64,000 nucleotides of DNA from the NCBI GenBank assembly GCA_030526985.1, contig JAUNBT010000001.1, positions 2,838 to 66,837 of the forward strand, read 5' to 3'. How positions within the stretch are numbered: the stretch's first letter is position 1; every line of letters starts with the position of its first letter. This document shows positions 31,578 through 57,412 of this stretch, one piece after another. The notes under the pieces are model-generated. The model ran no database searches. It had not been told where the DNA came from and saw only the letters and a list, made by a program, of their open reading frames with translations. Origin of the DNA: Lachnospiraceae bacterium. GTDB lineage: Bacteria > Bacillota > Clostridia > Lachnospirales > Lachnospiraceae. Position numbers and translations under genes: made by a program.

Positions 31578-31583
31578 ATTGAT

Positions 31584-32738
31584 TTACACCCTGATATAAT
31601 TTGTATAAACCGGCTGCATTCCCTGGGCTAAAATAGCCTGATGGACTTCTTCCACGTTTCTTGGGTCTGAGATTTCGAACTGTTCATCTCCCTTTTTCTC
31701 CTCATCATGGCCGCCTACACTCACTTTCACACCGGCTGATATTTTGGTCGCACATAGGTTAATGACGTTATCACGGAAACCGGAACGCTCTCTTGTAGAA
31801 ATTGTAATTCCGGCATAAGGCATCAACAGGCGGTAAGATAACATAACTTGTAAAAGCTGGGTTTCATGGACGTCCTTCGGATTTTCCTCTGCATTGTTAA
31901 TGTAAGGCCGAAGTCTCGGCACAGAAAAAGAAATCTCCGCATGGGGATATGCCTGCTGAACAAAATAAGCGTGCAGTCCCACCGCATAGGCATCTTTTCT
32001 AAAATCAGAAAGTCCTAAAAGAGCTCCAAAACCAGCTCCTCTCATTCCACCCTTAAGGGCTCTTTCCTGGGCATTAAAACGATACGGAAATACTCTTTTA
32101 TGTCCGGACAAATGTACCTCTTCGTATTTTTTTGTATTATAAGTTTCCTGATATACACTGACAAAGTCTGCCCCACACTGTCTTAAGTAGGCATACTCAT
32201 CCGTGTTAAGGGGATATATCTCAATTCCAATTGTAGTAAAATACTTCGTTGCCAATTTTACCGCATCGCCGATATAAGGCACATCGGACATATGTCTGGA
32301 TTCCCCTGTGAGAAGAAGAATTTCCTGAAGTCCGGTTGCGGCAATATTTTTATACTCTTTTTCAATTTCTTCCATGGTAAGCTTCGCCCGATGGATTTTG
32401 TTCTTACAGTTATATCCACAATAGACACAATTGTTTTCACAGTAATTCGCGATGTAAAGAGGAGTAAAAAGACAGACTGCATTTCCAAAATTTCTCCTCG
32501 TCTCATATTGTCCCCGCACAGCCATCTGTTCTAAGTAGGGAAGTGCGGCCGGAGATAATAAGGCACCATAATCAGAAAGTGAGATTTCCTCCTGAGACAG
32601 AGCGTGCTCCACATCCTTTGCCGTGTAACTGTCATAATCATATTCTTCCATCAGGGCGAGAACCCGGTCCATAATCCTGGTATCCGTCTTCTCCATTCCT
32701 TCCATATACGTCATACAATCTGGTGTTGTCAAATTCAT
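31584..32738 (-). CDS. thiH: 2-iminoacetate synthase (radical SAM)
   Basis: 384 aa. CENNCVYCGY (CX3CX2C) and a BATS-like C-terminus. It lies next to thiG. Confidence 0.85.
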   Translation of the reverse strand: MNLTTPDCMTYMEGMEKTDTRIMDRVLALMEEYDYDSYTAKDVEHALSQEEISLSDYGALLSPAALPYLEQMAVRGQYETRRNFGNAVCLFTPLYIANYCENNCVYCGYNCKNKIHRAKLTMEEIEKEYKNIAATGLQEILLLTGESRHMSDVPYIGDAVKLATKYFTTIGIEIYPLNTDEYAYLRQCGADFVSVYQETYNTKKYEEVHLSGHKRVFPYRFNAQERALKGGMRGAGFGALLGLSDFRKDAYAVGLHAYFVQQAYPHAEISFSVPRLRPYINNAEENPKDVHETQLLQVMLSYRLLMPYAGITISTRERSGFRDNVINLCATKISAGVKVSVGGHDEEKKGDEQFEISDPRNVEEVHQAILAQGMQPVYTNYIRV

Positions 32739-32750
32739 CCTGCTCTCCTC

Positions 32751-33518
32751 CTAGTCCCTTAAAAATCCAGTCAGTGGGCTGGAAGCCTCTGCCTTGTGCT
32801 CTAAAATTCTTCCAAGGCCGGCAAGATAAGCAGCTCTTCCAGCTTCGATTGCTAATTTAAATGCCGTTGCCATCAGTGGAATATCTTTTGCCGTTGCCAC
32901 TGCAGTATTTGCCATAACTGCATCTACACCGATTTCCATTGCCTCGCATGCCTGAGACGGGCGGCCAATTCCAGCATCCACTACGATTGGAAGATCAATT
33001 TCTTCTACCAGAATTTTAATAAAATCTTTTGTGAGAAGCCCTTTGTTGGTTCCAATCGGTGCACCTAACGGCATGATGGCTGCGGCGCCTGCATTATAGA
33101 GGTCTCTTGCCACATTTAAATCCGGATACATATAAGGCATGACAATAAATCCCTCTTTTGCCATCAGTTCTGTCGCTTTAATCGTTTCATAGTTATCCGG
33201 AAGCAGATATTTGCTGTCTCTGATTACTTCCACTTTCACAAAGTCTCCACAGCCAAGCTCTCTTGAAAGTCTGGCAATCCGCAATGCTTCTTCGGCATTT
33301 CTTGCACCGGAAGTGTTAGGAAGCAGCGTGATTCCCTCCGGCATATAATCCAAAATATTTTCTTCTTTTCCAGAATTTGCCCGGCGCAGTGCTAAAGTTG
33401 CCATCTCCACACCGCCATTTTTAATTACTGCATCCGTCATTTCCAAAGAAAATTTTCCGGATCCTAAAATAAATCTGGACTGAAATTCATGTCCTCCAAT
33501 GATTAATTTGTCTTCCAT
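32751..33518 (-). CDS. thiG: Thiazole synthase
   Basis: [39 protein letters not shown] and VDAGIG motifs. The ATG at 33518 is preferred, because the ORF-track N-extension overlaps thiF. It ends in TAG. Confidence 0.9.
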
Positions 33519-33547
33519 TTTTGTAATCTCCTTTTTGTTTTTTATAT

Positions 33548-34165
33548 CTATGCTTCTTCCATCAAGAGGCGGATCACCTGATTCGCCTGGTGGGCTGCGC
33601 ACAACGTCACTCTCGGAGCCAGCATGCCCTCCACCTTTTCAAAATCACTTTTTTCATCTCCGCAAAGGTAGAGCCGGCTCATCTTCTTTACGGTTCGTAT
33701 TTCATTTGCATCGCCGTATCCGGCCATCCCAGAACCGGAAATAATTTTTGTTCCGGGACATTTAGTTAAAATCCCATTAATCAGCCCTGCTTTTTGATCG
33801 GCTGCATCAAGTGCCTCGCAGACAATCTGACAGTCTTTAAATAGGATATGACAATTTTCCTCTGTTATTTTTTCCCGGCTCAAAGTAAGCGTAATCCCAG
33901 GATTTATTTTCTTTAAGTTTGTGGCAAGGGCCTCTACCTTATCCAAACCAATCTGGTCTAAGGTATACTGCTGTCGGTTCAGATTACTCTCCTCTACCTT
34001 ATCAAAATCCACCAGCACAAGAGACGAAATTCCGGTCCTTGCAAGCATAACAGCGATGTTGGATCCAAGCCCTCCGGCTCCGGCAATTCCAACCCTGCTT
34101 TTTTGCAGCCGATCATATACCTTGTCGGGCACTCTGGCAAACATTTCTCCTTTTTCGGCTCCCAT
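33548..34165 (-). CDS. thiF: Sulfur-carrier protein ThiS adenylyltransferase
   Basis: [11 protein letters not shown] Rossmann motif of the E1-like fold, and its position between thiS and thiG. The ATG at 34165 follows GGAGG. It ends in TAG. Confidence 0.8.
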
Positions 34166-34166
34166 A

Positions 34167-34361
34167 TCAGCCTCCCCCCACAAAGCTTACAATCTCCAAC
34201 TCATCTGCTTCACTTAAAAATGCACTGTCATATTCGGCCTTTGGAATAATCTCTCCGTTTTTTTCCACTGCAACCCGCAGCCGGTTATATCCTTGTTCTT
34301 CCAACAGACCGCCAACTGTCATCCTTTTGGTAAGCTCCATATAAGTTCCGTTGACCTTCAT
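34167..34361 (-). CDS. thiS: Sulfur-carrier protein ThiS
   Basis: 64 aa ending ...VSFVGGG, the ThiS/MoaD C-terminal GG. A GGAGGTG RBS is present. Confidence 0.85.
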   Translation of the reverse strand: MKVNGTYMELTKRMTVGGLLEEQGYNRLRVAVEKNGEIIPKAEYDSAFLSEADELEIVSFVGGG

Positions 34362-34399
34362 GATTTCGTCACCTCCAATTCAAAAATAATTCCCTATAT

Positions 34400-34462
34400 A
34401 GAAAAAAGGACATAAAATGAAACCCACACCCGAGGTGGTGTGCCCCATTTTATGTCCTTTAG
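34400..34462 (-). promoter_or_regulatory. Candidate thiS-motif (HMP-PP) riboswitch: a terminator-embedded hairpin in the thiS leader
   Basis: Minus strand: AAGGACAUAAAAUG-GGG-CACACC-ACCUCG-GGUGUG-GGUUUC-CAUUUUAUGUCCUU followed by UUUUUU. It sits about 40 nt upstream of the thiS ATG. The roughly 100-nt leader has no room for a TPP aptamer. Confidence 0.45.
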
Positions 34463-34471
34463 ACGTTTTTT

Positions 34472-34499
34472 ATTGTAACACAACAAAGAAAAATGTCAA
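34472..34499 (-). promoter_or_regulatory. SigA-type promoter of the thi operon
   Basis: Minus strand reads TTGACA-16 nt-TACAAT. Confidence 0.6.
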
Positions 34500-34540
34500 T
34501 ACTGTTTCTAAATTAATACAAACCGGAGGGCTTTGCCAGC

Positions 34541-34650
34541 AAATAAGAAAGAATCCCGCTTTGCGGGATTCTCCGCCTGCGGCGGGTCGCATAAGCGACA
34601 TCTTCCCTTCCGCCGCAGTGCGATCCTGCCCGGAGGGCTTCCCCGACAAA
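34541..34650 (-). ncRNA. GC-rich structured element of unknown class, ending in an intrinsic terminator
   Basis: Minus strand carries a 9-bp stem CUGCGGCGG/CCGCCGCAG enclosing GUCGC-UUAU-GCGAC. Next comes the perfect hairpin AGAAUCCCGC-AAA-GCGGGAUUCU followed by UUCUUAUUU. It is far more GC-rich than its surroundings. Confidence 0.3.
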
Positions 34651-34769
34651 TAAAAAACTACCATCATACTGTCCATTCCCCCCAGAATGCTGGCGACAGT
34701 ATAACGATAGTTCCGTCTTTTGTTTTTGTCAAACAAAACGATTAAAGTCTTTGCTACTTTTTAATCAGT
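34651..34769 (-). ncRNA. Candidate ~120-nt small RNA or leader (consensus promoter to strong terminator)
   Basis: It begins about 7 nt downstream of a perfect TTGACA-17-TATAAT promoter. It has two AU-rich hairpins. A 17-bp stem ACUAUCGUUAUACUGUC/GACAGUAUGAUGGUAGU then follows, with UUUUUU after it. Confidence 0.35.
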
Positions 34770-34775
34770 GTGTTA

Positions 34776-34804
34776 ATTATACAGTTTTGTAATCATTTTG
34801 TCAA
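34776..34804 (-). promoter_or_regulatory. Consensus SigA promoter (TTGACA-17-TATAAT)
   Basis: Plus strand has ATTATA at 34776-34781 and TGTCAA at 34799-34804, with an exact 17-nt spacer. Confidence 0.65.
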
Positions 34805-34832
34805 GCCTTTTATTGCATATTTCACAATTATC

Positions 34833-35049
34833 GTAACAGGTCAGCCTTCGGCTGACCTCAAGAATTTTGATGCAGAACATATTGGCGACAATGAATAAGG
34901 TTGAAAATTTCCTATGGGCAAAAAACAAGCTTTTTATCTCCCTTTAGAAAAATGAATGCCAAAATGAAGTTTTCAGCAGTAAATTATGGGATTTAACAAC
35001 AAAATTAGATAAATTTTAAAGTCCAGTATTCCTATTGCCCAACCGATGG
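34833..35049 (+). repeat. Copy A of a ~215-bp repeat (inverted partner at 63754-63971)
   Basis: By-eye alignment to the reverse complement of 63754-63971 shows identical runs GGCGACAATGAATAAGGTTGA and TTAGAAAAATGAATGCCAAAA (21 nt each). Many shorter identical blocks are also present. Confidence 0.8.
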
Positions 35050-35123
35050 AATAAAGATGTCATATATCCCCTCATAGAAAGCCTGCCCCTCACCAAAAGA
35101 TATAGTCTCCCTTTCTTTTCTGT

Positions 35124-35564
35124 TTATTTTCTTTTTTTTGTGAGCATAAACCACTTTTGCGGAATGGACAAAGCCACAATAATTCCCATTACGATTGCCA
35201 TTGCAACTTTCAGCGTTTCTACGCCCTGATAGATTGCCTGAGACAATTCATCCGTCATCAAATAGTAGATTACATAGTAAATCTGGACACCCGGAACCAG
35301 AGGAAACAGTCCAGCGATGGCAAATATAATAACCGGGCACTGCCGTCTCACTGCCAAGATCCGGGCAGCAATCCCTACAATCAAGGCAGCACCAAAACAG
35401 GAAAAAAGCGGGTAGGAAAAACGTTGCAGCACCAGATAGCACATCCAGCCCAGTGTACCGGTAAGACCGGCCCACAAAAAATGCTTTTTGGGTGTATTAT
35501 AAAGAATGGAAAAACCCACTGTCCCGCCAAATGCAGCAACCATCTGAAATAAGATTCTGCTCAT
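35124..35564 (-). CDS. Threonine/serine exporter family protein (ThrE_2, small subunit)
   Basis: 146 aa with 4-5 TM segments. It overlaps the upstream ThrE gene by 4 nt. Confidence 0.65.
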   Translation of the reverse strand: MSRILFQMVAAFGGTVGFSILYNTPKKHFLWAGLTGTLGWMCYLVLQRFSYPLFSCFGAALIVGIAARILAVRRQCPVIIFAIAGLFPLVPGVQIYYVIYYLMTDELSQAIYQGVETLKVAMAIVMGIIVALSIPQKWFMLTKKRK

Positions 35565-45145: not shown

Positions 45146-46561
45146 TTATTTTTTCTGTTCCATATATTCTTTTAAGGCGGCTCCCAATGCCTGACAACCC
45201 TTCACAATTTCCTCTTCTGTCATAGCATTAAACCCGACCAGAAAAGTATCTTCTCTGGCCCGGTTTTTCTGATAATAGTACTCCTTTGTACCGTATATTC
45301 CTATTGAACGATTTTTCATCCATTCAATCAGCTCATTCTGATTTTTACAATCCGGAATTCTGATTAGAGTATGAACTCCTGCCGGATGCTCAAAAAGTTC
45401 AATATATTTTTTTAAATACTTCTTTAATGCCCCCACCAACACATGATATTTCTGCTCATTTATCAGGGAAATTCGTCGGATATGTTTTTCTAAGGAGCCT
45501 TCCTCAATAAATCGAAACAGCGCTCTTTGGTGATAACTGGGCAAAGCAGAATTAAAATACTGATATACCTCCTGATACCGGGGCAAAAGCTGTTCTGGTA
45601 AAACAAGATAGGCACATCGGATTGACGGCAGCATTACCTTCGATAATGTGCCGGTATAAATGACTCTGTCTTCTTCGTCTAAAGACTGAAAAGACGGGAT
45701 TGGCACCACACCGTACCGGAATTCACTGTCATAATCATTTTCAATGATATAAGCATCATTTTCTCTGGACCAGTCAAGAATTCTTTTTCTCTTTTTTACA
45801 CTGGTCACTGTTCCGGTAGGAAACTGATGAGAAGGAGTCATATAAACTAAGTTACAATTTGTATTTTCTAAAAGTTCAGCATCGATTCCGTCGTCCAATA
45901 CCGGAATAGATGTGATACTGTATCCTTTATTAATAAAAATATTTCTCATGGCATCATAGCCCGGCTCTTCATAAGCTAAACGATACTGATTCGCCGGAAG
46001 CAGCGTTGTGATAATATCCACTGCAAACTGGGTTCCCGGACACATAATAACCTGCTCCGGTTTACATTTTACACCTCTGTGCTTATTTAAAAAACTGCAC
46101 AGACTTTTTCTTAACTCTTCATTTCCTTTATTGCATTCATATGGAATTGTCTGCATGCTTTCTTCGTCAAGCAATGCTTCCTGTATGCATTTTTTCCATT
46201 TATTCCAGGGAAATACACTGGTATCGATACTGGAATATAAAAAATCATATTTGTTATAAAACTCTTCTGATGGTTCTTTTTTAGAGAAATGTTTCTTCCG
46301 GCTGTTTTGTTCAAAATAGTCCTTCGTAATATCTTCTACATAATAACCGGAACCAGGAACAGAACGGATATAGCCTTCCGCCAAAAGCTGCTGATAAGCC
46401 CGATCCACCGTATTTTTGCTAATCTGAAGCTCTTTTGCTAAAATGCGGACAGAGCTTAAAACTGTATTTTGAGGTAATTTTCCAGTGACGATTTCTTCCT
46501 TCAATTCTTCATACAATTGTTCATATAACGGTTTGTTAATATTTTTATCTAAATAAACCAT
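45146..46561 (-). CDS. MocR-type regulator (GntR wHTH fused to a PLP aminotransferase-like domain)
   Basis: N-terminus LSSVRILAKELQISKNTVDRAYQQLLAEGYI. The roughly 350-aa C-terminus has a fold-type I aminotransferase pattern (...TGTLSKVMLPSIRCAY...). Confidence 0.8.
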   Translation of the reverse strand: MVYLDKNINKPLYEQLYEELKEEIVTGKLPQNTVLSSVRILAKELQISKNTVDRAYQQLLAEGYIRSVPGSGYYVEDITKDYFEQNSRKKHFSKKEPSEEFYNKYDFLYSSIDTSVFPWNKWKKCIQEALLDEESMQTIPYECNKGNEELRKSLCSFLNKHRGVKCKPEQVIMCPGTQFAVDIITTLLPANQYRLAYEEPGYDAMRNIFINKGYSITSIPVLDDGIDAELLENTNCNLVYMTPSHQFPTGTVTSVKKRKRILDWSRENDAYIIENDYDSEFRYGVVPIPSFQSLDEEDRVIYTGTLSKVMLPSIRCAYLVLPEQLLPRYQEVYQYFNSALPSYHQRALFRFIEEGSLEKHIRRISLINEQKYHVLVGALKKYLKKYIELFEHPAGVHTLIRIPDCKNQNELIEWMKNRSIGIYGTKEYYYQKNRAREDTFLVGFNAMTEEEIVKGCQALGAALKEYMEQKK

Positions 46562-46576
46562 TCTTTATCCACTCCA

Positions 46577-47281
46577 TTACCCAACCCACCTTGCGGCATA
46601 ATTTTTGCAATATTCACAGTTCTTATGTCCGGACAGACACTCACTGCAGTTCATTGACGACAGAACCATCTCCTGATCTAGAAGAAGGAAAATGCCGACA
46701 AAGCTTTTGACTGGATTCATCATCCCACTCTCTAAAAGTTCTAAGTCAATCTTTTTGTGATCCATAAATCGAAAGAATGTCCGCACCTTCGAAGATGCTA
46801 TGCCAAACATACCCGGTGCAAGCGTATCTGTAATATACAGTTCCTTTTTGTACTCTTTCTTTGCTTTTTTTAGCAGCAGTTCTCTTAGCACATCCCTTCC
46901 GGCATCCACAAAGCTTGTCTGCCAGGAATCAGCCAGATACATTTCACTGACCGGATAGGACGAAAGATCCGGCATCGGTGCATGAAACATAAATACATAT
47001 CCGCCCAGGACACTTTCTAAGTCCACTTTACTTAATATATTACATTCAATTTTATAATTTTCAAGAAGAAAATGGTCTTCTTTCACACATTCTTTTGTAA
47101 AAGGACGAAGTAAAAAATCCATCTTTGTGCCGTCAAATATCTTTTTCCTAACTTTCATCGCATTGTCCCGGATTTTTTTTGCCCCTTTGGTATCCCGGTC
47201 AAATCCGCACATCACTGCCATATACTGTTCTGAAAGGTCGTATAACTTCTCCGTCTCTATTGTCAAAATTTCATCTGGCAT
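46577..47281 (-). CDS. Methionine-synthase activation-domain-like protein with a C-terminal CX2CX6CX2C motif
   Basis: 234 aa. ...LAPGMFGI.......F.....IDLELLESGMMNPVKSF.GI... resembles stand-alone MetH activation (Met_synt_B12-like) proteins of Clostridia. The tail reads CSECLSGHKNCEYC. Confidence 0.5.
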   Translation of the reverse strand: MPDEILTIETEKLYDLSEQYMAVMCGFDRDTKGAKKIRDNAMKVRKKIFDGTKMDFLLRPFTKECVKEDHFLLENYKIECNILSKVDLESVLGGYVFMFHAPMPDLSSYPVSEMYLADSWQTSFVDAGRDVLRELLLKKAKKEYKKELYITDTLAPGMFGIASSKVRTFFRFMDHKKIDLELLESGMMNPVKSFVGIFLLLDQEMVLSSMNCSECLSGHKNCEYCKNYAARWVG

Positions 47282-47289
47282 TTTCTCTC

Positions 47290-48330
47290 CTAATATTTTC
47301 CGTATGTATTCGCTTCCTCCACCATAACTCTGGCAAAATGATCATCCATCAGTGCCGGATATTCACAGCCGGTGGCAAGGATGAATCCGCCATCCTTTTT
47401 GTAGGCATCGATCTGTTCCCGGCAGAGTTTTCTCAGTCTTTCATCATCGGCCACCATTAAAAATCCCGGGTCGATATGTCCAATAATCGTTGTCTGGCTT
47501 CCGTATTTTTCTTTTAATTCCTCCATAGTCCCACAGTCTGGTGGAAGATAAAGCATGGAAATCGCTTCCGGATGCATCCTTGCAATCTGCTCTTTAAAAT
47601 AAATACCGTCTCCGCAGTTGTGAATCATAAATGCTTTTCCCTGACGATGGACATTTTCAGCCAGCCTCTGTAAGGCTGCTCCCTCAAACTCATCCCACAT
47701 AGATGCTCTCATAATTGTTTTGGAAGAATATAAAGTATCGTACATAATACCATCGGCACCCGCTTCAATGAGGGCATTACTGTACTCAATCAAAACATCT
47801 GTAACAACATTGATTTTTTCTTTGACTTTGTCCTTCATTTTTTTCTTCATACAGTGCATCATAAGTCCCTCTAAGCCGGTCATCATACTCAATATCCCCA
47901 TCGGTCCAAATACAAAGGCAATAATCGGATACTCTTTTCCCTTTTTCTCAACCAGAATCTTTGTAAGCTCAATCATTTTACTCATCCGCTCTGTTTTTCT
48001 CGGATTAATTGGAACGACCTTTTCGTAATCTTCCAATGTTTTGATAAAAGTATCACCGGAAGGCATCACCGCTTTATCTGGATAGTAGGTAATATCCATT
48101 CCCCAGTCTGCAGCCTCCACAGATAAATCCACTAAAGTTACGATCACATCTAATCCCAAATCTTCTGTTGTCTTAATAATCGCATCTGCACATTTTTCAG
48201 GATCCTTTGTCCACTCATCATAACCAATTCCATATTTTCTCCATGAAATACTGTTGCAAATCGGGTAAACAGGAACTCTGTCTGCCTCCTCATGGTTTAA
48301 TATTTTCATTACTCTTTCCCTTGCATTCAT
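47290..48330 (-). CDS. Uroporphyrinogen decarboxylase (URO-D) family methyltransferase (MtaA/MtbA/CmuA-like)
   Basis: 346 aa. MNARERVMKILNHEEADRVPVYP and the overall length are typical of the corrinoid-dependent MT2/URO-D family. It ends in TAG. Confidence 0.7.
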   Translation of the reverse strand: MNARERVMKILNHEEADRVPVYPICNSISWRKYGIGYDEWTKDPEKCADAIIKTTEDLGLDVIVTLVDLSVEAADWGMDITYYPDKAVMPSGDTFIKTLEDYEKVVPINPRKTERMSKMIELTKILVEKKGKEYPIIAFVFGPMGILSMMTGLEGLMMHCMKKKMKDKVKEKINVVTDVLIEYSNALIEAGADGIMYDTLYSSKTIMRASMWDEFEGAALQRLAENVHRQGKAFMIHNCGDGIYFKEQIARMHPEAISMLYLPPDCGTMEELKEKYGSQTTIIGHIDPGFLMVADDERLRKLCREQIDAYKKDGGFILATGCEYPALMDDHFARVMVEEANTYGKY

Positions 48331-48493: not shown

Positions 48494-50470
48494 TCAGATT
48501 CCGCAGTATGCCGTTACCGTCACTCTTCCACCTAACAGCAGACTTTTGCCGCCTGTATTGGATTGAAACTGATCTACATTCTGAAAGAAGGTCACTTCAC
48601 CCCTTCCCCCTCTTTCCTTTAACTTTTCTTCTGCCGTTTTTTCTAAATATTTTGTCACAATCTCAACAGCCTCTTCAAAGTCTTCCACGATTTTTTTCTC
48701 TCCTGAAAGAAAGAATCGGAAACCTTCTTTTTCCTTCTCACTTCCAAAACTAAGCTCGATTGCATCTGTCACTGCTATTCTTCCAGCCAGTGTGCCAACT
48801 GCATTCGCCGCCATAGAATATGGAGGGATGCATACTTTTGCCGACAGTTTTTTTCCCACTTTCTCCATAAAAATGTGGGCCGGTCCTCCAACTCCGACTA
48901 TGGAAAGCTTACTGAAAAATCCGGGAACAATCAACTCAGACTGATTTTCTTCGCTTGCATATTCAATGAAACGGGACAGTTCCTCCGGAATTCCGTTTTG
49001 ATAAAGTTTCGTCCCTTTTTCCAAAAGGACCCGGACAATATTACAGTAAAGTTTTCTTTCCACAAGAGCATAAATTTCATCCGCTATTTCGTTTTCTGTC
49101 CGCTCTTCAAGCTTAGCCAAAAACCGGAGTACAATCCGGGAAGCCTCCCCATCAAATCCATTGTAATCCCCTTTTACATGCATGGCATCTGTGGGCGTGA
49201 TACCAAACCGTAAAAGAACCCCTTCTTTTTCCAACTGTTTTACAGTATCCTCCAGATAGTATCTTCCACAAAGATGGGCTGCTTCCTCGTAAAGAATGGG
49301 GCCATCCTTTAACCTTTCTATCAGTGCAAGCTGTTTTTCGTCGTAATAAGCCGCATTCCTGCTTTCATCCTGGAGGACAAATCCCTCAAAGACAAAACCT
49401 TTCCCCAACTTTTTTACAAGCGGAAGCTGTTTTAATTTCTCCAAAAGCTCCGGATAGCAGGCCGCCGCCATAGCAACCGGCATGACACGAAAATTTTCCA
49501 GGTACAGTCCTTTCTCGTTATATCTGATACAGCTGTCACCGCCCAGGCCAACGGTATCGATATAGAGACCTTTTACAAAGGTTTTCCAGCCATTCATTCG
49601 AATCCCATCTTTTACTGTGACCGCCATCCCATTTCGCAGAAGAGCCATATCCGTCGTGGTGCCGCCGATATCAACAATCAGGGCATCTTTTTCTTTCGAC
49701 AAAAAACTTCCTCCCACCGCACTAGCCGCCGGACCACACAAAAGAGTTTCTACCGGATGGTTTTTTGTAAATGTCTCATTCATCAATGTTCCATCGCTTC
49801 TCACCACATAAATCGGAAGATTTAAGCCTTTCCTTTTTAACACACATTTGACTGCGCACAAAAACTGGTCAATCAGTGGAATCAAACGGATATTTAGATA
49901 AGTACCGGCTCCCCGCATGATTGCATTTACATCAGAAAACAGAAAACTTCCACAGATCACTGGGACAGAATATCTCTTTTCAAACCGTTCTTTTGCCTGT
50001 CTTTCATAGGCCCCGTCGTTCCATTCAGGAAAATACTGCACAATTCCAATCGCTTCTGCCTCTTTAAATTCGTCCATCATCCCTTCTAGTTTCTCCCAGT
50101 CAGGCTCTACCGGTCTGCAAAATCCACCCTCCGGCACACCATCTATAAAATAGAGGTCGTCCATACCGTCAAAACCATATTGTTTGTAATGCCTTTTTAC
50201 GATTTCTTCTTTCACGCCGATAAATAAAAGCTTGACCCGTCCACCTTTATTTTCCACACACGCATTGGTAGCAAGGGTAGTAGAAAGGGAGACAAAGGAA
50301 ACTTCCCTTAATTTTTCTTTTTCCAAAAGATTTAGAGCCTTTTCGATTCCGGTTTCAAGATGTCCTTTTGTCGTCAGCGTTTTTCCGGTAGATAACACCT
50401 GCTGGCTGTCAAAATCATAGATTACCGCATCTGTACAGGTCCCTCCTGTATCAATTCCCAGTCCAATCAT
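48494..50470 (-). CDS. Hydantoinase/oxoprolinase-family (ASKHA-fold) ATPase
   Basis: 658 aa. N-terminus MIGLGIDTGGTCTDAVIYDF and an internal IVDIGGTTTDMAL are the two phosphate-binding motifs of hydantoinase A-type proteins. Its start lies 21 nt after the pylSc stop. Confidence 0.7.
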   Translation of the reverse strand: MIGLGIDTGGTCTDAVIYDFDSQQVLSTGKTLTTKGHLETGIEKALNLLEKEKLREVSFVSLSTTLATNACVENKGGRVKLLFIGVKEEIVKRHYKQYGFDGMDDLYFIDGVPEGGFCRPVEPDWEKLEGMMDEFKEAEAIGIVQYFPEWNDGAYERQAKERFEKRYSVPVICGSFLFSDVNAIMRGAGTYLNIRLIPLIDQFLCAVKCVLKRKGLNLPIYVVRSDGTLMNETFTKNHPVETLLCGPAASAVGGSFLSKEKDALIVDIGGTTTDMALLRNGMAVTVKDGIRMNGWKTFVKGLYIDTVGLGGDSCIRYNEKGLYLENFRVMPVAMAAACYPELLEKLKQLPLVKKLGKGFVFEGFVLQDESRNAAYYDEKQLALIERLKDGPILYEEAAHLCGRYYLEDTVKQLEKEGVLLRFGITPTDAMHVKGDYNGFDGEASRIVLRFLAKLEERTENEIADEIYALVERKLYCNIVRVLLEKGTKLYQNGIPEELSRFIEYASEENQSELIVPGFFSKLSIVGVGGPAHIFMEKVGKKLSAKVCIPPYSMAANAVGTLAGRIAVTDAIELSFGSEKEKEGFRFFLSGEKKIVEDFEEAVEIVTKYLEKTAEEKLKERGGRGEVTFFQNVDQFQSNTGGKSLLLGGRVTVTAYCGI

Positions 50471-50491: not shown

Positions 50492-51334
50492 TTATTTAAT
50501 GTTTAATCTCGCTCCATCTAAAAATGCAAGGCTTCTGGAATAACGGTGGATTCCCTCTTCCTTTTCCCGATACATTAAAAGCCGCTCTAAGCCAAATCCA
50601 ACTCCCACCCAGCTGCAGGTTACATTCCAGGCATCATCTAGTGGATGTGGCCCCATGGAAGTAGAGGCAAGCTCCAATCCATCGGGACTTACAATATCAA
50701 TCCCTTTTCCGTATACAACAGATTCTTCCTCCTCCACCTTGAAATCTTTTATTCCAGCTGCATTTAATACAATTTTGGAAAACTCTTTTAACCTTTCGTT
50801 CCTCTCTTCTATAGGAGTTCCCCACTCTACCAGATTTAACATGGTAAATTCTTTTAAATGCTGTCTTCCCTCTGACTCTTTTCGAAAACAGGAACCAATT
50901 TCAAATACCCTGAGGGGAAGCTTTGAAAAATTCATCAGCCGTTTGGATACATCATAAAGATTCGGTGCTAACATCGGACGCAGACAGGTCTTTTGGTCCA
51001 GCCAGAACACTTGATCATTTAACGGATGGGTTCCATCTATGGTCATCCTCTCTAAAAATTTTCTAGAAAGAATGGTCGGTGTCGCCACCTGAGTAAATCC
51101 ATGCCCAATCAAACAATCGGCAAGATCATTTTGCAGACGGCACAATTTGGGTTGACGGGTTTCGTAAAGAAGAGTACGAATCCGTCTTTTATTTTCTGTC
51201 ACTGCTTCTTTTTCAATTTTTTGATAACTTTTTCCTGCTGCCTGTTTCTCTTCAAACTCCTGTTCTCTTACTTCCTTTTTTACCCCTAATTCTGACAAGC
51301 GGATTTTTTGTGTCTCTGAAAATGAATATGCCAT
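50492..51334 (-). CDS. pylS: Pyrrolysyl-tRNA synthetase, catalytic (C-terminal) subunit PylSc
   Basis: Class II aaRS core: LRPMLAPNLY, RVFEIGSCFRKESEGRQHLKEFTMLN, WVGVGFGLERLL and tail SLAFLDGARLNIK. This closely resembles the bacterial PylSc sequence as I recall it. The ATG at 51334 follows AAAGGAGG. Confidence 0.9.
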   Translation of the reverse strand: MAYSFSETQKIRLSELGVKKEVREQEFEEKQAAGKSYQKIEKEAVTENKRRIRTLLYETRQPKLCRLQNDLADCLIGHGFTQVATPTILSRKFLERMTIDGTHPLNDQVFWLDQKTCLRPMLAPNLYDVSKRLMNFSKLPLRVFEIGSCFRKESEGRQHLKEFTMLNLVEWGTPIEERNERLKEFSKIVLNAAGIKDFKVEEEESVVYGKGIDIVSPDGLELASTSMGPHPLDDAWNVTCSWVGVGFGLERLLMYREKEEGIHRYSRSLAFLDGARLNIK

Positions 51335-51348
51335 CTTAAAATCCTCCT

Positions 51349-51723
51349 TTACCTTTTTGCTTTTGAATCTGTAAATACGGTCGCCGAATATTTGGAAAGC
51401 TTCCACTGGGGCACTTTACATTTGGGACATGCATGCTGACACCAGCGATTCCGAATCCATCTTGCACTGCGGCTGTTTTTTGAATTCCACACGGTAAACT
51501 CTTCTCCGCAGTGAGTCGTAATATGAAGCATATTGCCCCGCTGTTCAATCTCTTTTATGCCATGAAGCACACCGGAACGGGCCGGCCATAATTTAATCTT
51601 ATGAATCAACTCATATAAACTCTGATTTTTATAAATATATCGTTTCGGTTCTATCTTTTTTTGTACTGTCCCCGCTGCCATCCTGATTCCCTCTTTTCTT
51701 TTTATGTCAGTTTTTGTTTTCAA
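51349..51723 (-). CDS. pylSn: Pyrrolysyl-tRNA synthetase N-terminal (tRNA-binding) subunit PylSn
   Basis: 124 aa. ...LWPARSGVLHGIK...ITTHCGEEFTVWNSKNSRSARWIRNRWCQHACPKCKV matches the zinc-binding PylS N-domain pattern. The start could instead be the internal Met at 51681. Confidence 0.8.
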   Translation of the reverse strand: MKTKTDIKRKEGIRMAAGTVQKKIEPKRYIYKNQSLYELIHKIKLWPARSGVLHGIKEIEQRGNMLHITTHCGEEFTVWNSKNSRSARWIRNRWCQHACPKCKVPQWKLSKYSATVFTDSKAKR

Positions 51724-51738
51724 TTCCGGTCCATTTCT

Positions 51739-52548
51739 TTATCCAATGTCCTGTTTCATGCAGTCATAATACATTGTAAGTACGCCGGATTCTAATGGAT
51801 TAAAAATTAGCACCGCCTCTTTTTGTGCCTCCTTTGTTGTCCCAATCGGCATTCCCGGAGAAGCGATTACTGTCCCTGCTGCAACATCATTCTTTGTAAT
51901 CACGCCCTCTACCGGAGTAGCATCCAGAAAATAATGAAATTCCTTTTTCTTTCGTCCCGATTCAAGCACCTTTCCGTAAGGAAGTCCTTTTACAGCCTCG
52001 ATTGCTCTTTCTTCCACCACATCATAGACAGAAAATGGAATCTGATTTAAGTCAAACCAACCGGCAGCCGCCCTTCCAACCGGACCTGCCCCTAACACTA
52101 ACACTTCCTCTTTCTTCCCTTTCATCGCCAGACTTAAAGCCGCCGCATAACCGATTCCTGTTCCATAGCCATTATCCGAATAAATCCGTCTCCCATCCAA
52201 TAAAAATGCACTGAAAATATCATCATCAGCCATAAAGACCATTTCCGCATTTTTTTCATAGGCTTCCTGTAACCCTGCCACATCGGTTTTTTGGGTCACC
52301 CATGCATCAATACCACAGTATTTTAATATTTCACAGACAGTATCGGAAAAACCACCAATGATTCCAAGACCACTTGTCACCGGTACTACTGCAGTCCGGT
52401 AATGAGTTCTCCTGTTTTTTAATCCCACTGCATACTGAGCAGTCTCCTCCATGGTGCATCCCGTCTGCTTTTTAAATTCCTGATCAGAAAGAGCCATCCG
52501 CTCTGCAACTTTTTCAATATCTGATTCTATTAATCTTGACATAATCAT
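51739..52548 (-). CDS. pylD: Pyrrolysine biosynthesis dehydrogenase PylD
   Basis: 269 aa. VVPVTSGLGIIGGFSDTV, MADDD and VLVLGAGPVGRAAA (Rossmann) are collinear with archaeal PylD. Confidence 0.85.
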   Translation of the reverse strand: MIMSRLIESDIEKVAERMALSDQEFKKQTGCTMEETAQYAVGLKNRRTHYRTAVVPVTSGLGIIGGFSDTVCEILKYCGIDAWVTQKTDVAGLQEAYEKNAEMVFMADDDIFSAFLLDGRRIYSDNGYGTGIGYAAALSLAMKGKKEEVLVLGAGPVGRAAAGWFDLNQIPFSVYDVVEERAIEAVKGLPYGKVLESGRKKKEFHYFLDATPVEGVITKNDVAAGTVIASPGMPIGTTKEAQKEAVLIFNPLESGVLTMYYDCMKQDIG

Positions 52549-52565: not shown

Positions 52566-53711
52566 TTACCCTTCTATTAATTTTAACTGTCTGTTCCCAA
52601 GTGATTCATTAATATTGTCAATGCAATTTAAAAATTCTTTTCTTGCCTCTTTTTCAGTTTTTGCCGTGACAATCAAGATTGCTTTAAATGCCTTCGCTCC
52701 TTTTTTATAATCCGTAATGCCCTCTTTGGCTCCAAAAAAATGTTCTTTTACATATAATTCTTTACAATCCGTCAGGATATGTTCTCCCTTTACTAAGATT
52801 CTGTCCGGTTCCACACTAATCTGCTGGTAATAGCAAACTTCCTCTTTCTTCTTTTCGGCCCGGGCAGATTTTTTCAGTGTCAATTCCACCAACAACTGGA
52901 TCATATTAATCCCACTTGACTGATACACGCTGATTGGTGTCTGGCTCGGAAATCTGGCATCAATTTCTAATATTTTTAAAACTCCATTATGGCAGATTAC
53001 TTCAATGTCAAAAATTCCTCTTATTTTTAAAGCTTTTGCCAATTTTTCTGCCATATGGTAAAACTGCTTTTCCTGCTTTTTACTCAAAGAAGCCGGGGCT
53101 ATAATTCGTTTACAGTCATACCCTTTGTCAATCACAACTTCTGTAATCTGCGGAAAATAAAACTGATTTCCATCTCCAATCACCTCCAAAGAAAAGGAGC
53201 GTCCTTCTAAAAACTCCTGTACTACCGCATTTTCTCCCATTTCTTTTAAGATTTCTTCCGCTTCCTCCTTCGATTTCGCCTTTTTAACCCCTACACTTCC
53301 GCTTAAACCGTCTGGTTTTATAATAACTGGAAATGCATTCTCCCCATATCTCCCCGGCATAGGAAGGTCCAACTTTTCAAATAGCTCGTTAGATTTTTTC
53401 TTGGAAGAAGATATTTCATAGGCTTTTGGATCGAAAATAACCGGAATATGAAATCGTTCCCCAAAACAGCTGAGTTTTTCTAAAACTGCTTTCTTCTCCA
53501 TCGCTGGAATCACCACATCTGCTTCCTGAAACAGGCGTGTAAATCGTTCCTCTTCTTTTAAAATGTCGATTACCTCTACACGGTCTGCAATTCCAAATGC
53601 CGGAGCATGTTTTCTTTTATCTGCCACGGTTACATGATATCCGGCTTTTTTTGCCAGATAGGTGACCTCGATTCCCTGAAGTTTTCCTCCGACTACTAAA
53701 ATTTGAATCAT
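52566..53711 (-). CDS. pylC: 3-methylornithine--L-lysine ligase PylC (ATP-grasp)
   Basis: MIQILVVGGKLQGIEVTYLAKKAGY plus an ATP-grasp body. The ATG at 53711 follows AGGAGG. The ORF-track N-extension overlaps pylB. Confidence 0.85.
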   Translation of the reverse strand: MIQILVVGGKLQGIEVTYLAKKAGYHVTVADKRKHAPAFGIADRVEVIDILKEEERFTRLFQEADVVIPAMEKKAVLEKLSCFGERFHIPVIFDPKAYEISSSKKKSNELFEKLDLPMPGRYGENAFPVIIKPDGLSGSVGVKKAKSKEEAEEILKEMGENAVVQEFLEGRSFSLEVIGDGNQFYFPQITEVVIDKGYDCKRIIAPASLSKKQEKQFYHMAEKLAKALKIRGIFDIEVICHNGVLKILEIDARFPSQTPISVYQSSGINMIQLLVELTLKKSARAEKKKEEVCYYQQISVEPDRILVKGEHILTDCKELYVKEHFFGAKEGITDYKKGAKAFKAILIVTAKTEKEARKEFLNCIDNINESLGNRQLKLIEG

Positions 53712-53754
53712 ATCGCTCTCCTCCTGTTCCTTCCAATGTTGTCTCATTGCTGTT

Positions 53755-54801
53755 TTATCGCTGACTTTGTCTTTTTTCAATCCATTTTTGGTAACTTAAG
53801 GCGCCTGCATCGGAAAGCCCACATTCCTTTACAGTCTCCATAATACCTTCCACGGTACGTCCGCCTTCATCAATATCGGTTTTCGCACTGGCAACCCCGG
53901 CAAATCCTTTTTTCGGTGGGATAATGGATGTGATTACATTTGCCCCCGCCATCAGACGCTGTTTTAATCCGTTAAGGCCATCCACGTCTAAAGAGGCCGG
54001 AATCAGTCTGTCCGGAAACAAAATCCTCATCAGTGCAATATTTAAAAGTTCATCGTGAAAACTTCTGCGTTCTATTTTTCCCATCGGTGTTCCATCCTGG
54101 GGGATAAATGTCATCGTCCTTACCTGAGAGGCTCCTAAACGCTCCATTTCTTGAAAGGACAAATAAATATCTTCCCTCGATTCCCCTACTCCTGTAAGAA
54201 GTCCTTCCTCAATCAACATTCCTTTTTGAGCTGCATATTCTTTCGCCGCCATTCTTTCTTCGTAAGGCTGTCCGGTCCGCAGACTATCATAGAGCTTCTT
54301 TTGATGTGTCTCCTGATACAGTGCATACCAGGAAGCTCCAGCTTCTGCAAGCTGATCAATTACTTTGTGGGAGACAACCCCGGGAGAAATCATGACTGGG
54401 AGTCCAGTTTTATCCTTTACCTCCCTGACCGTCTCTATCAGTTCCTCCGGATGAGAAATATAATAAGGATCTTCTCCCATAGTAAGATCAATTAGATGAA
54501 CACCGGATTCTTTTAAACTTACCGCCGTCTCAATAATCTCCTGTCGGCTTTTCCGATAGCGGGGCGGTTGTTTATTTTCTTTCCGGTAAAAGCAGAAAGA
54601 ACAATTATTTCTACAATAAGTAGAAAAATAGACAAATCCATAAAAAAATACCTGGTCATTAAAATATTTCTGTCTGACCTTTCTTGCTGCCCTATAGATT
54701 TCCTCTCTGGCATCCTCCTCTTTCTGATTTAATAAAAATAGGATTTCTTCCTTTTTAAAATTTTCTATTCCTGTTTTCTTTAAAATATCTGTCAGATTCA
54801 T
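53755..54801 (-). CDS. pylB: Methylornithine synthase PylB (radical SAM)
   Basis: 348 aa. YFSTYCRNNCSFCFYRKEN (CX3CX2C), biotin-synthase-like fold, and its position at the head of pylBCD. Confidence 0.85.
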   Translation of the reverse strand: MNLTDILKKTGIENFKKEEILFLLNQKEEDAREEIYRAARKVRQKYFNDQVFFYGFVYFSTYCRNNCSFCFYRKENKQPPRYRKSRQEIIETAVSLKESGVHLIDLTMGEDPYYISHPEELIETVREVKDKTGLPVMISPGVVSHKVIDQLAEAGASWYALYQETHQKKLYDSLRTGQPYEERMAAKEYAAQKGMLIEEGLLTGVGESREDIYLSFQEMERLGASQVRTMTFIPQDGTPMGKIERRSFHDELLNIALMRILFPDRLIPASLDVDGLNGLKQRLMAGANVITSIIPPKKGFAGVASAKTDIDEGGRTVEGIMETVKECGLSDAGALSYQKWIEKRQSQR

Positions 54802-54851: not shown

Positions 54852-54888
54852 AAAAAAGAGAAGTGTATCCGCTACACTTCTCTTTTTT
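54852..54888 (-). terminator. Symmetric intrinsic terminator between pylT and pylB
   Basis: Stem AGAGAAGTGTA / TACACTTCTCT with an A-run on one side and a T-run on the other, so it is potentially bidirectional. Confidence 0.6.
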
Positions 54889-54933: not shown

Positions 54934-55002
54934 CGGAGAATCCCGGCGCTGCACCCGGCTGTACGGAGTTAGAGTCCGCATGATCACTTCGATCCATCCT
55001 CC
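54934..55002 (-). tRNA. pylT: tRNA-Pyl (anticodon CUA)
   Basis: Manual fold of GGAGGATGGATCGAAGTGATCATGCGGACTCTAACTCCGTACAGCCGGGTGCAGCGCCGGGATTCTCCG. It has a 7-bp acceptor stem, a single linker nt, a 4-bp D stem with a 5-nt loop, a 6-bp anticodon stem, loop CUCUAAC, and a 3-nt variable loop CAG. CCA is not encoded. Confidence 0.85.
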
Positions 55003-55005
55003 AGA

Positions 55006-55092
55006 TTTTTCAGTACGGGATTTTTTCAGACCCATCCGAAATTCTGCCCTGAAAATTTTGGTGCCGGTCTGAAAAAATATTCCGCCTGAAAA
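55006..55092. repeat. Array of five TTTTCAG/CTGAAAA heptamers forming a long inverted repeat between mtmB and pylT
   Basis: TTTTCAG occurs at 55007-55013 and 55023-55029. CTGAAAA occurs at 55049, 55069 and 55086. ATTTTTTCAGACC (55020-55032) pairs perfectly with GGTCTGAAAAAAT (55066-55078). Confidence 0.7.
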
Positions 55093-55123: not shown

Positions 55124-56512
55124 TTAATCCCAATAATCTAATCCAAGGCCTTTTAAGATTTCAACTGCCTCATCATAAATCTCAACATATTCCTGTGATG
55201 GTGTCAGAGTCTTCACGTCATAGCATTCCTGGAATTTCTTTCCTGTCGGAGCAGTCTTATAGTCCTTCTCATACATGGAAACTAACTTATCCAGTAATAC
55301 ATTTACCTCATGAAGATCCATTCCTGCAACAGCATGTGCTGCCTCACCCATCATTCTGGCCTCCATTGCGGTAAATAAATCTGTTGTTACTCCTTTACAG
55401 GATGCAACACCGGAGAGAATCTCTCTTCCACTTGCCGTATCTGTAATTGCCTGTGCCGCTGTCTCTAAAAGACACATAACGGTACATGGACCAGCCAGAG
55501 TATAGTATTGATTTCCAAGGATTAAATGTGTATTTTCTTCAATTGCTTTTGCTGCATGACCTGCCACGCAAAGAGCTTCTCTCGCTGTTGTGATACCCCA
55601 GCGGACGTGAACAGGACCATCCAGATGCCAGGTAGCCTGTAACATTACAAAAGAGTTCAGTGTAGTTGCTACGTCAACGATTGTGGTAGCCTCAAGACCA
55701 CCAGCATATCCTCCGTAAATCGGCATCTGCTCTACCATAACATTTACACCAGCTTCTGCGTAATGAGCACCAACACACAACGCACCTACGTCGATTTTGA
55801 GCTCATTAAGCTGGGAAACCTCATGGGAGTCAGATGGACGCATGCCGCCCTCGAAGTCTGCTTCGATTACACCAGCGGCACTAAGGGATGTTTCGTTGCC
55901 CTACAATCCCATGCCGCATCGTCCGGCTCTCATCTGTGCTTCCCGCACCTGTAAAGCTTCGGAACGAACGGCCATAATTTCCCAAGGTGATCCTGGAACA
56001 GGATCTTTGCCCATCACTGTCTGCATAACACCGTCAACAATCGTATCCACAATTGGTTCCTGAGCATATGCCTGATGGATCGGAAGGAACATTTCCTCTG
56101 AACATGGAGATCCGGTCGGACCACCCTGAATCACAGGTGCCTTCTTTTCACTGGAATGTCTCGGTACTACGTTGATGGCCTCTTTGCCCTCACCGTATGT
56201 AAAATGATCCGGTGCTGTTTTAATTGCATGCAGCACTTCATCTCTTGTATATTTAATTACTCTTTTCGTATCGATGCAGTAAACACCACATTCTACCAAA
56301 AGGTCTAACCCTGCTTGAAACAGCTTATCACAAAGCTCTTTATCTTCAGGTATAATCGTCTTTTTATCCATTTTGATGCCGTACTTTTTCTTTAAAGCAG
56401 CGGCGGTCTGAGGAATGACTTTAAAATCCCATTCTTTTTCATCCATCTTAGGACCGCTTTTTGCTCTGTCATAGACATCATAAACGGTAATCGCTTTTCC
56501 GATTGCCTTCAT
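55124..56512 (-). CDS. mtmB: Monomethylamine methyltransferase MtmB with an in-frame UAG (pyrrolysine) codon at 55901-55903
   Basis: ORF-track pieces 55901-56512 and 55124-55843 are in the same frame and are separated only by TAG. Manual read-through gives ...AGRCGMGL-[UAG]-GNETSLSAAGVIEADFEGGMRPSDSHEVSQLNELKID... This is collinear with archaeal MtmB, which carries Pyl at the equivalent position. Confidence 0.9.
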
Positions 56513-56515
56513 CCT

Positions 56516-57178
56516 TTAAGCACTCCTTTTCTCACTCAATAATTTCTTTGCTATCTCAACTGCTTCTGTTGCCGTATCGGAATATCCGTCTGCCCCGATT
56601 GTATCGCACCATTCTTTTGAAACCGGTGCACCGCCAAACATGACAATATAATCGTCTCTGACTCCATCCTCATTTAAGAGAGTAATAATGTCTCTCTGAG
56701 CCGGCATGGTTGTGGTCATCAGCGCGGATCCTAAAATAATATCTGCATTGACTTCCTTTGCTGTTTCCACAACTGTTTCCACTGGTACATCACGTCCTAA
56801 ATCATGGACTGTAAAATTGTTTGCGGAAAACATTGTCTTTACAATATTTTTTCCAATATCATGGATATCTCCCTGAACGGTATGGATTACAACAGTTCCA
56901 TTCGACGTACTGTTCTTTTCTTCCTCAGTCATTCCACTCGTCAGAATTTCCACCGCTTTTTCAAAAGCTTCGGAAGCCATCAAAAGTTCCGGTACAAAAG
57001 CTTCTCCTTCGTCAAACAGATCACTCATTTTCTGCATTCCGGCAGATAAACCTTCGCTGATACATTCTAAGGGATCTAATCCAGCTTCTAAAGCGGCATT
57101 GGCAGCTTCTTCGGCAATGTCTTCATCCATCTCTGTAACGGCTTCTTCTAACTTGCTCATAATCTCTTCTTTGCTCAT
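56516..57178 (-). CDS. mtmC: Methylamine-specific corrinoid protein (MtmC-like, B12-binding)
   Basis: DxHxxG motif GDIHDIGKNIV and a helical-cap N-domain. The ATG at 57178 follows AGGAGG. Its stop lies 3 nt before the mtmB start. Confidence 0.85.
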   Translation of the reverse strand: MSKEEIMSKLEEAVTEMDEDIAEEAANAALEAGLDPLECISEGLSAGMQKMSDLFDEGEAFVPELLMASEAFEKAVEILTSGMTEEEKNSTSNGTVVIHTVQGDIHDIGKNIVKTMFSANNFTVHDLGRDVPVETVVETAKEVNADIILGSALMTTTMPAQRDIITLLNEDGVRDDYIVMFGGAPVSKEWCDTIGADGYSDTATEAVEIAKKLLSEKRSA

Positions 57179-57412
57179 CTTCCAACCTCCTTTATGTCTT
57201 CTCTTCATAGCCTCTAGCACATGAGCTTTTTTGTTCCTCATGTCTATGGTTCGTATTATACGGATTTTTTTGTCCTCTCTAAAGGGACAATCCCGGCGTT
57301 TTTTTCGGGGTCAGGAAAAAAATCTGCACAAAACGGCTTAAAATAAGGCTTTTTTTCTATTTCCTACTATTTTGCTTCCCCTTCTTTTCCTTTTTCCCTT
57401 TTTCTTTTTTGG

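Follow-up and report, generated by a model that had tools for sequence, protein, structure and literature searches.

The window analysed here is a stretch of 64,000 nucleotides (nt) from a Lachnospiraceae bacterium (assembly GCA_030526985.1, contig JAUNBT010000001.1, positions 2,838 to 66,837). On its minus strand, at 55124..56512, lies a gene which we are confident is mtmB, encoding a pyrrolysine-dependent monomethylamine:corrinoid methyltransferase in a spore-forming member of the Lachnospiraceae. The standard code divides this gene into two open reading frames (ORFs) separated by a single in-frame TAG, which stands where characterised MtmB carries pyrrolysine (Pyl). A corrinoid protein gene, a gene for tRNA-Pyl (pylT) and the pylB, pylC, pylD, pylSn and pylSc genes are found in the same locus.

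One mtmB gene with an in-frame UAG

The first half-ORF (55901..56512, 203 residues) closes on the TAG, and the second one (55124..55843, 239 residues) shares its frame. When the region is translated as one piece, codon 204 is the sole internal stop, and the 258 codons 3' of it contain neither a further stop nor a frameshift. Between the UAG and the Met which the ORF finder took as the second start lie 19 bridging codons, so that the read-through product has 203+1+19+239 = 462 residues. A sequence-only reading had proposed that the two ORFs are one mtmB with a single in-frame TAG at 55901-55903, and translation bore out both its coordinates and its frame. The expected length, close to the roughly 458 residues of archaeal MtmB, agrees with the 458 residues of MtmB1 from Methanosarcina barkeri. 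The residues around the UAG are ...RCGMGL-UAG-GNETSLS, the M. barkeri equivalent being GMGV-Pyl-GPETSLS. The motif given earlier, GMG-[UAG]-G.ETSL, had the surrounding context right but had dropped the Leu between GMG and the UAG; this shift by one residue, the minus strand and the bacterial instead of archaeal host are minor corrections. The peptide predicted across codon 204 is CGMGL-Pyl-GNETSLSAAGVIEADFEGGMR, and the Met of the second ORF follows GNETSLSAAGVIEADFEGG. The same split ORF pair occurs in the independent assembly Logan SRR24915838, hence the TAG is no assembly error. Looking for contigs that encode the N-terminal ORF gave one Logan contig of 5 kb, PylB gave none, and an exact-pattern scan of metagenome contigs was likewise empty.

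M. barkeri MtmB1 is the founding pyrrolysine protein. In a phmmer search of all PDB sequences, the read-through product matched it (1L2Q/1NTH/1TV2-4) over its full length with E=1e-176 and 58% identity. The alignment spans residues 6-458 of the query and 5-456 of the chain with one single-residue gap, far from the UAG. An X placed at the UAG pairs with the X (Pyl) of the 1L2Q chain in a locally ungapped stretch, window residue 204 corresponding to residue 202 of M. barkeri, and the proposal that the UAG occupies the catalytic pyrrolysine site is confirmed, as codon 204 aligns with Pyl202 of 1L2Q/1NTH. In addition, the residues aligned to E205, E229 and E259 of the M. barkeri enzyme, which we take to be functional residues there, are conserved. 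Pyl202 itself sits in the centre of the TIM barrel (PMC9842639).

The Pfam family MtmB (PF05369, 450 positions) is covered from position 1 to 195 by the 203-residue half and from 216 to 450 by the 239-residue half. The 20 positions left between them are supplied by the UAG and the 19 bridging codons, which had been suggested to continue the MtmB sequence and do so, filling positions 196-215 and being conserved as protein. Taken with the alignment to Pyl202 and the second assembly, the arrangement is far from anything that chance would give. An NCBIfam search returned no family for the read-through product, and Pfam and the PDB were used in its place.

Conservation and selection across relatives

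Relatives were taken from a scan in which each GTDB species was represented by one genome; it yielded 49 loci, 44 of them scorable across the UAG site. In 43 of these 44 (63-88% identity), which belong to several phyla, the only in-frame stop is a TAG at the homologous position, and the motif around it reads AGRxG(M/L)G(L/T)-TAG-G(N/S)E(T/S)S. TAG-bearing close relatives occur in many metagenome-assembled genomes (MAGs) from gut and rumen, including Ruminococcus, Butyricicoccus, Lachnospiraceae, Selenomonadaceae, Mitsuokella and Eggerthellaceae; no locus of the scan exceeds 88% protein or ~78% DNA identity to the window. The few 'full-length' database entries with Q at the site are cases in which the gene caller translated the TAG under an alternative code.

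The exception is L036 (Eubacteriaceae bacterium ES2, CP130740.1), whose mtmB is frameshifted. This gene (10001..11385, 1385 nt) shows many stops when translated in a single frame, though pylT and pyl genes follow it, so either the gene is truly a pseudogene or the complete genome has a sequencing error here.

In comparison with the three closest relatives, the ratio of nonsynonymous to synonymous substitution rates (dN/dS) is 0.05-0.075 on both sides of the TAG, and synonymous sites are nearly saturated. Within the 19 bridging codons, variation among 45 sequences is mostly synonymous and the protein is conserved. A region that is never translated would not give such dN/dS values, which argues that the 3' part of mtmB is under coding selection. 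The comparative evidence of conservation, selection and bridging-codon variation thus indicates that the mtmB UAG is translated.

Pyrrolysine biosynthesis, synthetase and tRNA genes

The features of the locus are collected in Table 1. For the Pyl proteins the curated NCBIfam cutoffs were applied, and the models were covered fully or nearly completely.

Table 1. Features of the mtmB-pyl locus and further in-frame TAG pairs, with window coordinates
Feature	Coordinates	Strand	Remarks
mtmB	55124..56512	-	462 codons + TAA stop; monomethylamine:corrinoid methyltransferase, pyrrolysine at residue 204
Pyrrolysine codon UAG	55901..55903	-	CTA on + strand; codon 204 of mtmB
19 bridging codons, GNETSLSAAGVIEADFEGG	55844..55900	-	Between UAG and the Met taken as second-ORF start by the ORF finder
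PYLIS_1 match (Rfam RF01982)	55804..55903	-	66.2 bits, E=2.8e-14; below gathering score 70
mtmC-like gene	56516..57178	-	Methylamine-type corrinoid protein, 220 residues; TIGR02370 pyl_corrinoid, 241 bits, cutoff 215
Promoter-like site	57255..57283	-	TTTAGA-17-TATAAT, upstream of mtmC; 10/12 consensus matches
Inverted repeat, perfect, 12 base pairs	55021..55077	-	TTTTTTCAGACC ... 33 nt ... GGTCTGAAAAAA; mtmB-pylT spacer
pylT	54934..55002	-	tRNA-Pyl, anticodon CUA; 121 nt downstream of mtmB
Intrinsic-terminator-like hairpin	54852..54888	-	16-base-pair stem, loop GCGGA, T-run; between pylT and pylB
pylB	53755..54801	-	Methylornithine synthase (radical SAM); TIGR03910, 482 bits, cutoff 348; MDO4553564.1 'methylornithine synthase PylB'
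pylC	52566..53780	-	3-methylornithine--L-lysine ligase; TIGR03909, 383 bits, cutoff 248
pylD	51739..52548	-	3-methylornithyl-N6-L-lysine dehydrogenase; TIGR03911, 200 bits, cutoff 150
pylSn	51349..51681	-	Small tRNA-binding subunit of pyrrolysyl-tRNA synthetase; TIGR03912, 124 bits, cutoff 51
pylSc	50492..51334	-	Catalytic subunit of pyrrolysyl-tRNA synthetase; TIGR02367, 315 bits, cutoff 178
URO-D / MtaA-CmuA family gene	47290..48330	-	Candidate second methyltransferase; Pfam URO-D, 188 bits
Cys-rich protein gene	46577..47281	-	234 residues; near mtmB + pyl genes in 17/49 loci
Regulator gene	45146..46561	-	MocR/PdxR-like GntR-aminotransferase regulator; near mtmB + pyl genes in 18/49 loci
ThiG-ThiH	32751..33602 / 31584..32738	-	Same frame across TAG
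RecD2-MatE	5925..8168 / 4557..5909	-	Same frame across TAG
111-residue ORF of unknown function / AAA-ATPase	4240..4575 / 2536..4227	-	Same frame across TAG

The limits given for pylC are those of the ORF, the true start being probably about 20-25 codons further in. For pylSn the start was set at the Met following GAGGG, and the ATG of pylSc is preceded by AAAGGAGG. Both are separate adjacent ORFs, and it is in bacteria that the synthetase takes this split pylSn/pylSc form (PMC3941956). Among the other products of the window are SpoIIR, germination proteins of the GerXA type, a coat protein of the CotS family, MreB, Ddl and IspE. The split synthetase together with the sporulation genes points to a bacterial host and not to an archaeon.

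The order of the locus is mtmC-mtmB-pylT, a hairpin, and pylB-C-D-Sn-Sc. For bacteria, the orders pylTScBCDSn and pylSnScBCD have been described (PMC3941956), and the window fits neither of them; the order is a descriptive trait on which function does not depend. The loci closest to the window in their MtmB also have the order B-C-D-Sn-Sc. The base composition of the mtmB-pyl module (40-44% guanine plus cytosine) is like that of its flanks and gives no sign of recent transfer.

The pylT gene was first spotted by eye and was called tRNA-Pyl(cta) by ARAGORN -ps, that is with a lowered threshold. It combines a 1-nt linker between acceptor and D stems, a 5-nt D loop, a 6-base-pair anticodon stem, a 3-nt variable loop and a discriminator G, compact features which are hallmarks of tRNA-Pyl. 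A search with nhmmer located homologues in 35 related loci. When 30 sequences are aligned, 97.7% of the cloverleaf is paired and 10 pairs show compensatory change; none of 500 shuffles reaches the observed values, and shifted registers fall far short of them too. In 28 of the 49 loci, including those of gut and rumen Bacillota, Eggerthellaceae and Synergistaceae MAGs, pylT follows mtmB on the same strand within 416 nt, which suggests that the two form a portable unit. The locus would provide a further natural pair of PylSn/PylSc and tRNA-Pyl, here in a variant with a G.G apposition in the T-stem, of interest to engineers of genetic-code expansion.

Organisation of a possible mtmC-mtmB-pylT unit

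The mtmC-like gene ends 3 nt before the start of mtmB, and a homologue of it adjoins mtmB in 45 loci. Its Met is preceded by AAAGGAGG, with the ORF reaching up to 57241, and the 220-residue protein is identical to NCBI MDO4553565.1 'corrinoid protein'. The equivalog models for MtbC, MtgC and MtaC all score its product under their cutoffs, so that its assignment stops at the methylamine type. The promoter-like site upstream of mtmC is located just downstream of a strong terminator hairpin that follows a CstA-like gene; such sites are no more numerous in this region than in shuffled sequence, and the site is only suggestive. Neither a riboswitch nor another Rfam element was found in the mtmC leader, the matches there being hairpin look-alikes of the CstA terminator.

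In the spacer between mtmB and pylT, the inverted repeat could serve as an operator or as a signal or structure for processing. The TCAGGGCAG inside it resembles the motif CTCAGGG(A/C/G)AG that stands 5' of pylT in relatives (L018, L019, L045, L010, L011, L013, L030, L004, L043 and L041). The spacer also holds three TTTTCAG direct repeats.

The hairpin between pylT and pylB, whose region folds with -32.8 kcal/mol for 94 nt, appears to close an mtmC-mtmB-pylT unit. About 19 of 35 relatives likewise have a comparable hairpin and T-run after pylT, in some cases with homologous stem sequence, and only about 50 nt without a good promoter match separate the hairpin of the window from pylB. We tentatively put forward, as a possibility with less than even chances, that mtmC-mtmB-pylT is one terminator-bounded transcription unit, in which production of the suppressor tRNA is tied strictly to that of the mRNA of its one visible client, and that pylBCDSnSc lie behind the terminator. 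If true, this would be a compact and self-limiting code-expansion module, permitting the use of pyrrolysine without proteome-wide read-through despite the TAG stops of other genes. No other gene for a Pyl-dependent methyltransferase (mttB, mtbB) is present in the window.

Proposed mechanism

Read-through as such, like the substrate, the acceptor of the methyl group and the control of the system, is what we infer from the locus. PylB, PylC and PylD would make pyrrolysine out of two lysines, and PylSc, together with the tRNA-binding PylSn, would charge it onto tRNA-Pyl. The Pyl-tRNA(CUA) transcribed from pylT, brought to the ribosome by the ordinary elongation factor, would then read the UAG at codon 204, and a dedicated mRNA element should not be needed. 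Release factor 1 is expected to compete at this codon, so that some 203-residue product should arise. Indeed, Pyl decoding has generally been described as a competition with release factor 1 that involves no dedicated elongation factor (PMC2933860). With the imine of pyrrolysine placed in the centre of the TIM barrel, MtmB would bind methylamine and methylate Co(I)-MtmC. From there the methyl group is probably handed on by the MtaA/CmuA-family protein encoded 7 kb away, tetrahydrofolate being the likeliest acceptor in a bacterium.

Homologues of this URO-D protein with 60-73% identity lie near mtmB in 4 loci. The 234-residue Cys-rich protein and the MocR-type regulator may serve the pyl/mtmB system as accessory factor and regulator, respectively; the former has no significant Pfam match (Met_synt_B12 is faint, E=0.1) and a PDB profile search with it came back empty. 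Between pylSc and the URO-D gene, at 48494..50470 on the minus strand, lies a gene for a 658-residue hydantoinase/oxoprolinase-like ASKHA protein with a weak likeness to the B12-mutase accessory protein GlmL/MutL. It adjoins mtmB in only 2 loci, and we do not claim it as a corrinoid activase.

Points against the proposal and alternative explanations

Several observations weigh against a functional pyrrolysine-dependent MtmB system. Translation through the UAG, to begin with, is presumed from conservation. The pylT gene was missed by ARAGORN at default settings as well as by Rfam at gathering and permissive thresholds, and the middle pair of its T-stem is a G.G mismatch, common to 13 of the 30 aligned homologues, the rest having G-C. 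As to the pathway, all MtaA/CmuA-type NCBIfam matches of the URO-D protein stay below their cutoffs, and no corrinoid activase of the RamA/RACE type was recognised in the 64-kb window. Finally, TAG also ends 8 of the 55 other ORFs of the window (~15%), which makes a truncated product likely. The T-stem mismatch corresponds to columns 49/61 of alignment A1, and an alternative register gives a 4-base-pair stem with a bulged G.

The eight TAG-ended ORFs are those of ThiG, ThiF, Ddl, RecD2, a GntR regulator, the URO-D protein, CstA and one unknown protein. For ThiG, Ddl and URO-D the family models stop where the window proteins stop. TAG being a genuine stop there, amber suppression can be neither complete nor unconditional. 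Conditional expression of pyl genes has been shown for Acetohalobium arabaticum (PMC11467909), and the most plausible view by analogy is that it likewise limits collateral read-through in the organism of the window. Three further gene pairs, all on the minus strand, are in frame across a TAG plus a few codons (Table 1). They were rejected as additional read-through genes because Pfam identifies independent genes in them; suppression by Pyl-tRNA would fuse the partners, and the pairs could serve as natural reporters of collateral read-through.

Among the alternatives, the one that fares best is that the UAG is read through and the substrate of the enzyme is not monomethylamine. A further point against our proposal, concerning substrate specificity, is that the function of the bacterial homologues has been called 'unclear' (PMC3941956). 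Moreover, a non-Pyl MtmB homologue is reported to be needed for the use of tetramethylammonium and choline in Methanococcoides (PMC13044021). With 58% identity to a characterised monomethylamine enzyme, a conserved Pyl and a corrinoid partner that fits the methylamine-type family, we nevertheless regard another substrate as unlikely.

Somewhat less likely still is that a PYLIS stem-loop 3' of the UAG directs the read-through in the way SECIS does for selenocysteine. It could draw on the Rfam match of 66.2 bits, on an outer helix that is 87.8% paired across relatives, and on Methanosarcina, where replacement of PYLIS reduced the yield of full-length product (PMC2933860). However, the match does not reach the gathering threshold, the inner helix is only 55.5% paired across relatives and 4 of its 7 pairs in the window are non-standard. 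Overall pairing among 43 distinct sequences equals that of shuffles (72.7% and 72.3%), as does the covariation (0.081 and 0.075, with 95 of 500 shuffles reaching the observed score), and the 100 nt after the UAG fold no better than shuffled sequence (z=-0.13). On score, pairing, covariation and fold PYLIS_1 was therefore rejected as a supported RNA element, the match being explained by conserved codons. In published work, too, PYLIS is described as dispensable and low in covariance (PMC2933860; PMC3639795).

A pseudogene, in which the TAG is a nonsense mutation that leaves at most a 203-residue fragment and the 3' ORF is decaying, is very improbable. It would account for the two mtmB fragments under the standard code, for the consecutive NCBI accessions around mtmB described below and for the frameshifted relative L036. 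On the other hand, the TAG occupies the catalytic Pyl position, as it does in 43 of 44 scorable relatives from several phyla, the 258 downstream codons are intact with a dN/dS of about 0.05, and an intact pyl cassette lies alongside.

An equally improbable alternative is a split enzyme with 203- and 239-residue parts that have their own translation starts, that of the second being the ATG at 55843, and come together without pyrrolysine: a GAGGG does stand 4 nt (CGGC) upstream of that ATG and gene callers routinely give two pieces, but the GAGGG consists of Glu-Gly codons that are replaced by CCNGGC (Pro-Gly) in many relatives, the 19 codons from TAG to ATG are conserved as protein and fit the MtmB profile, the Met is an internal residue shared with M. 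barkeri (GGM), and a split would cost the enzyme its catalytic residue and part of the barrel.

Annotation of the locus

By exact-sequence look-up, the proteins of the window correspond to NCBI MDO4553521-MDO4553566, labelled 'MAG: ... [Lachnospiraceae bacterium]'. PylB (MDO4553564) and the corrinoid protein (MDO4553565) are consecutive, with no accession between them for mtmB. This numbering suggests that the public annotation issued no mtmB protein, by a pseudogene flag or by omission. In a large protein collection, the members of the 90%-identity cluster are mostly fragments of 203 or 240 residues, and the 239-residue mtmB fragment is on record from Logan only. That gene callers split genes at Pyl codons is a familiar artefact of annotation (PMC6778437; PMC7593587). 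As a consequence of the split calling, the methylamine-demethylating capacity would be missed in functional profiles of this genome.

Other features of the window

A 707-residue large serine recombinase (10896..13019, minus strand) adjoins an AAA-ATPase_like/PDDEXK_9 gene at 13117..14693 on the same strand. The latter consists of two overlapping ORFs (14331..14693 and 13117..14358), probably owing to a frameshift, and has an intact paralogue at 2536..4227. A thiamine biosynthesis cluster with ThiF, ThiG, a ThiH-like protein and ThiE extends over 30984..34736 (minus strand). Rfam found no TPP riboswitch in 34100..35200, nor anywhere in the window at gathering thresholds.

Comparison with known systems

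Pyl-containing mtmB has been reported for Acetohalobium arabaticum and Desulfotomaculum acetoxidans (PMC3941956) and Pyl-containing MtmB for strain DCMF of the Peptococcaceae (PMC6778437). These Bacillota share with the window the kind of gene, the phylum, a nearby pyl cassette and the fragmented gene calls. The window differs from them as a Lachnospiraceae MAG with the order mtmC-mtmB-pylT, terminator, pylB-C-D-Sn-Sc. What sets its locus apart is the family of the host, the order of the genes and a protein record that appears to be missing, and we make no claim to a first description. A full-text search for pyrrolysine together with Lachnospiraceae, in a literature whose coverage is incomplete, returned incidental co-mentions only. 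The gut literature centres on the MttB of Bilophila (PMC7593587), and in animal guts the use of monomethylamine via pyrrolysine by bacteria that are not methanogens may exceed the picture drawn by a literature centred on Bilophila and methanogens.

Family members without pyrrolysine provide a second comparison. The homologue L051 (Logan SRR15661548, 554..1951, protein P0002) belongs to PF05369 and is 68% identical to the MtmB of the window, but has a genuine TGT (Cys) at the Pyl position (GMGI-C-GSETSLS) where the window keeps TAG. This gene itself stops in TAG and is followed by genes for a corrinoid protein and a URO-D protein. The MtmB homologue of Bilophila wadsworthia is of the same family but without the TAG (PMC7593587), and that of Methanococcoides Q3c, also a PF05369 member, has a sense codon at the Pyl position. 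A distant homologue in an Archaeoglobaceae MAG (L048, 2875..3696), 31% identical over 273 residues, lacks an in-frame TAG where it matches and is adjoined by a corrinoid-protein gene.

With M. barkeri MtmB1 the gene of the window shares a full-length match (462 and 458 residues), an adjacent corrinoid-protein gene and the UAG exactly on Pyl202 within GMG(V/L)-Pyl-G(P/N)ETSLS. The systems differ in the host, which here is a spore-forming bacterium, in the synthetase, which is split into PylSn and PylSc, and in pylT, which lies 3' of mtmB and not at the head of a pylTSBCD operon. Furthermore, a PYLIS structure is unsupported in the window, and the methyl acceptor is probably not coenzyme M.

Recoding of UGA to selenocysteine by SECIS and SelB is comparable in that a stop codon in a specific enzyme gene is reassigned to a catalytic non-standard amino acid with a dedicated tRNA. 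In contrast to it, pyrrolysine is used without a supported cis element or a required dedicated elongation factor (PMC2933860), and it is made as a free amino acid and charged directly by its own synthetase.

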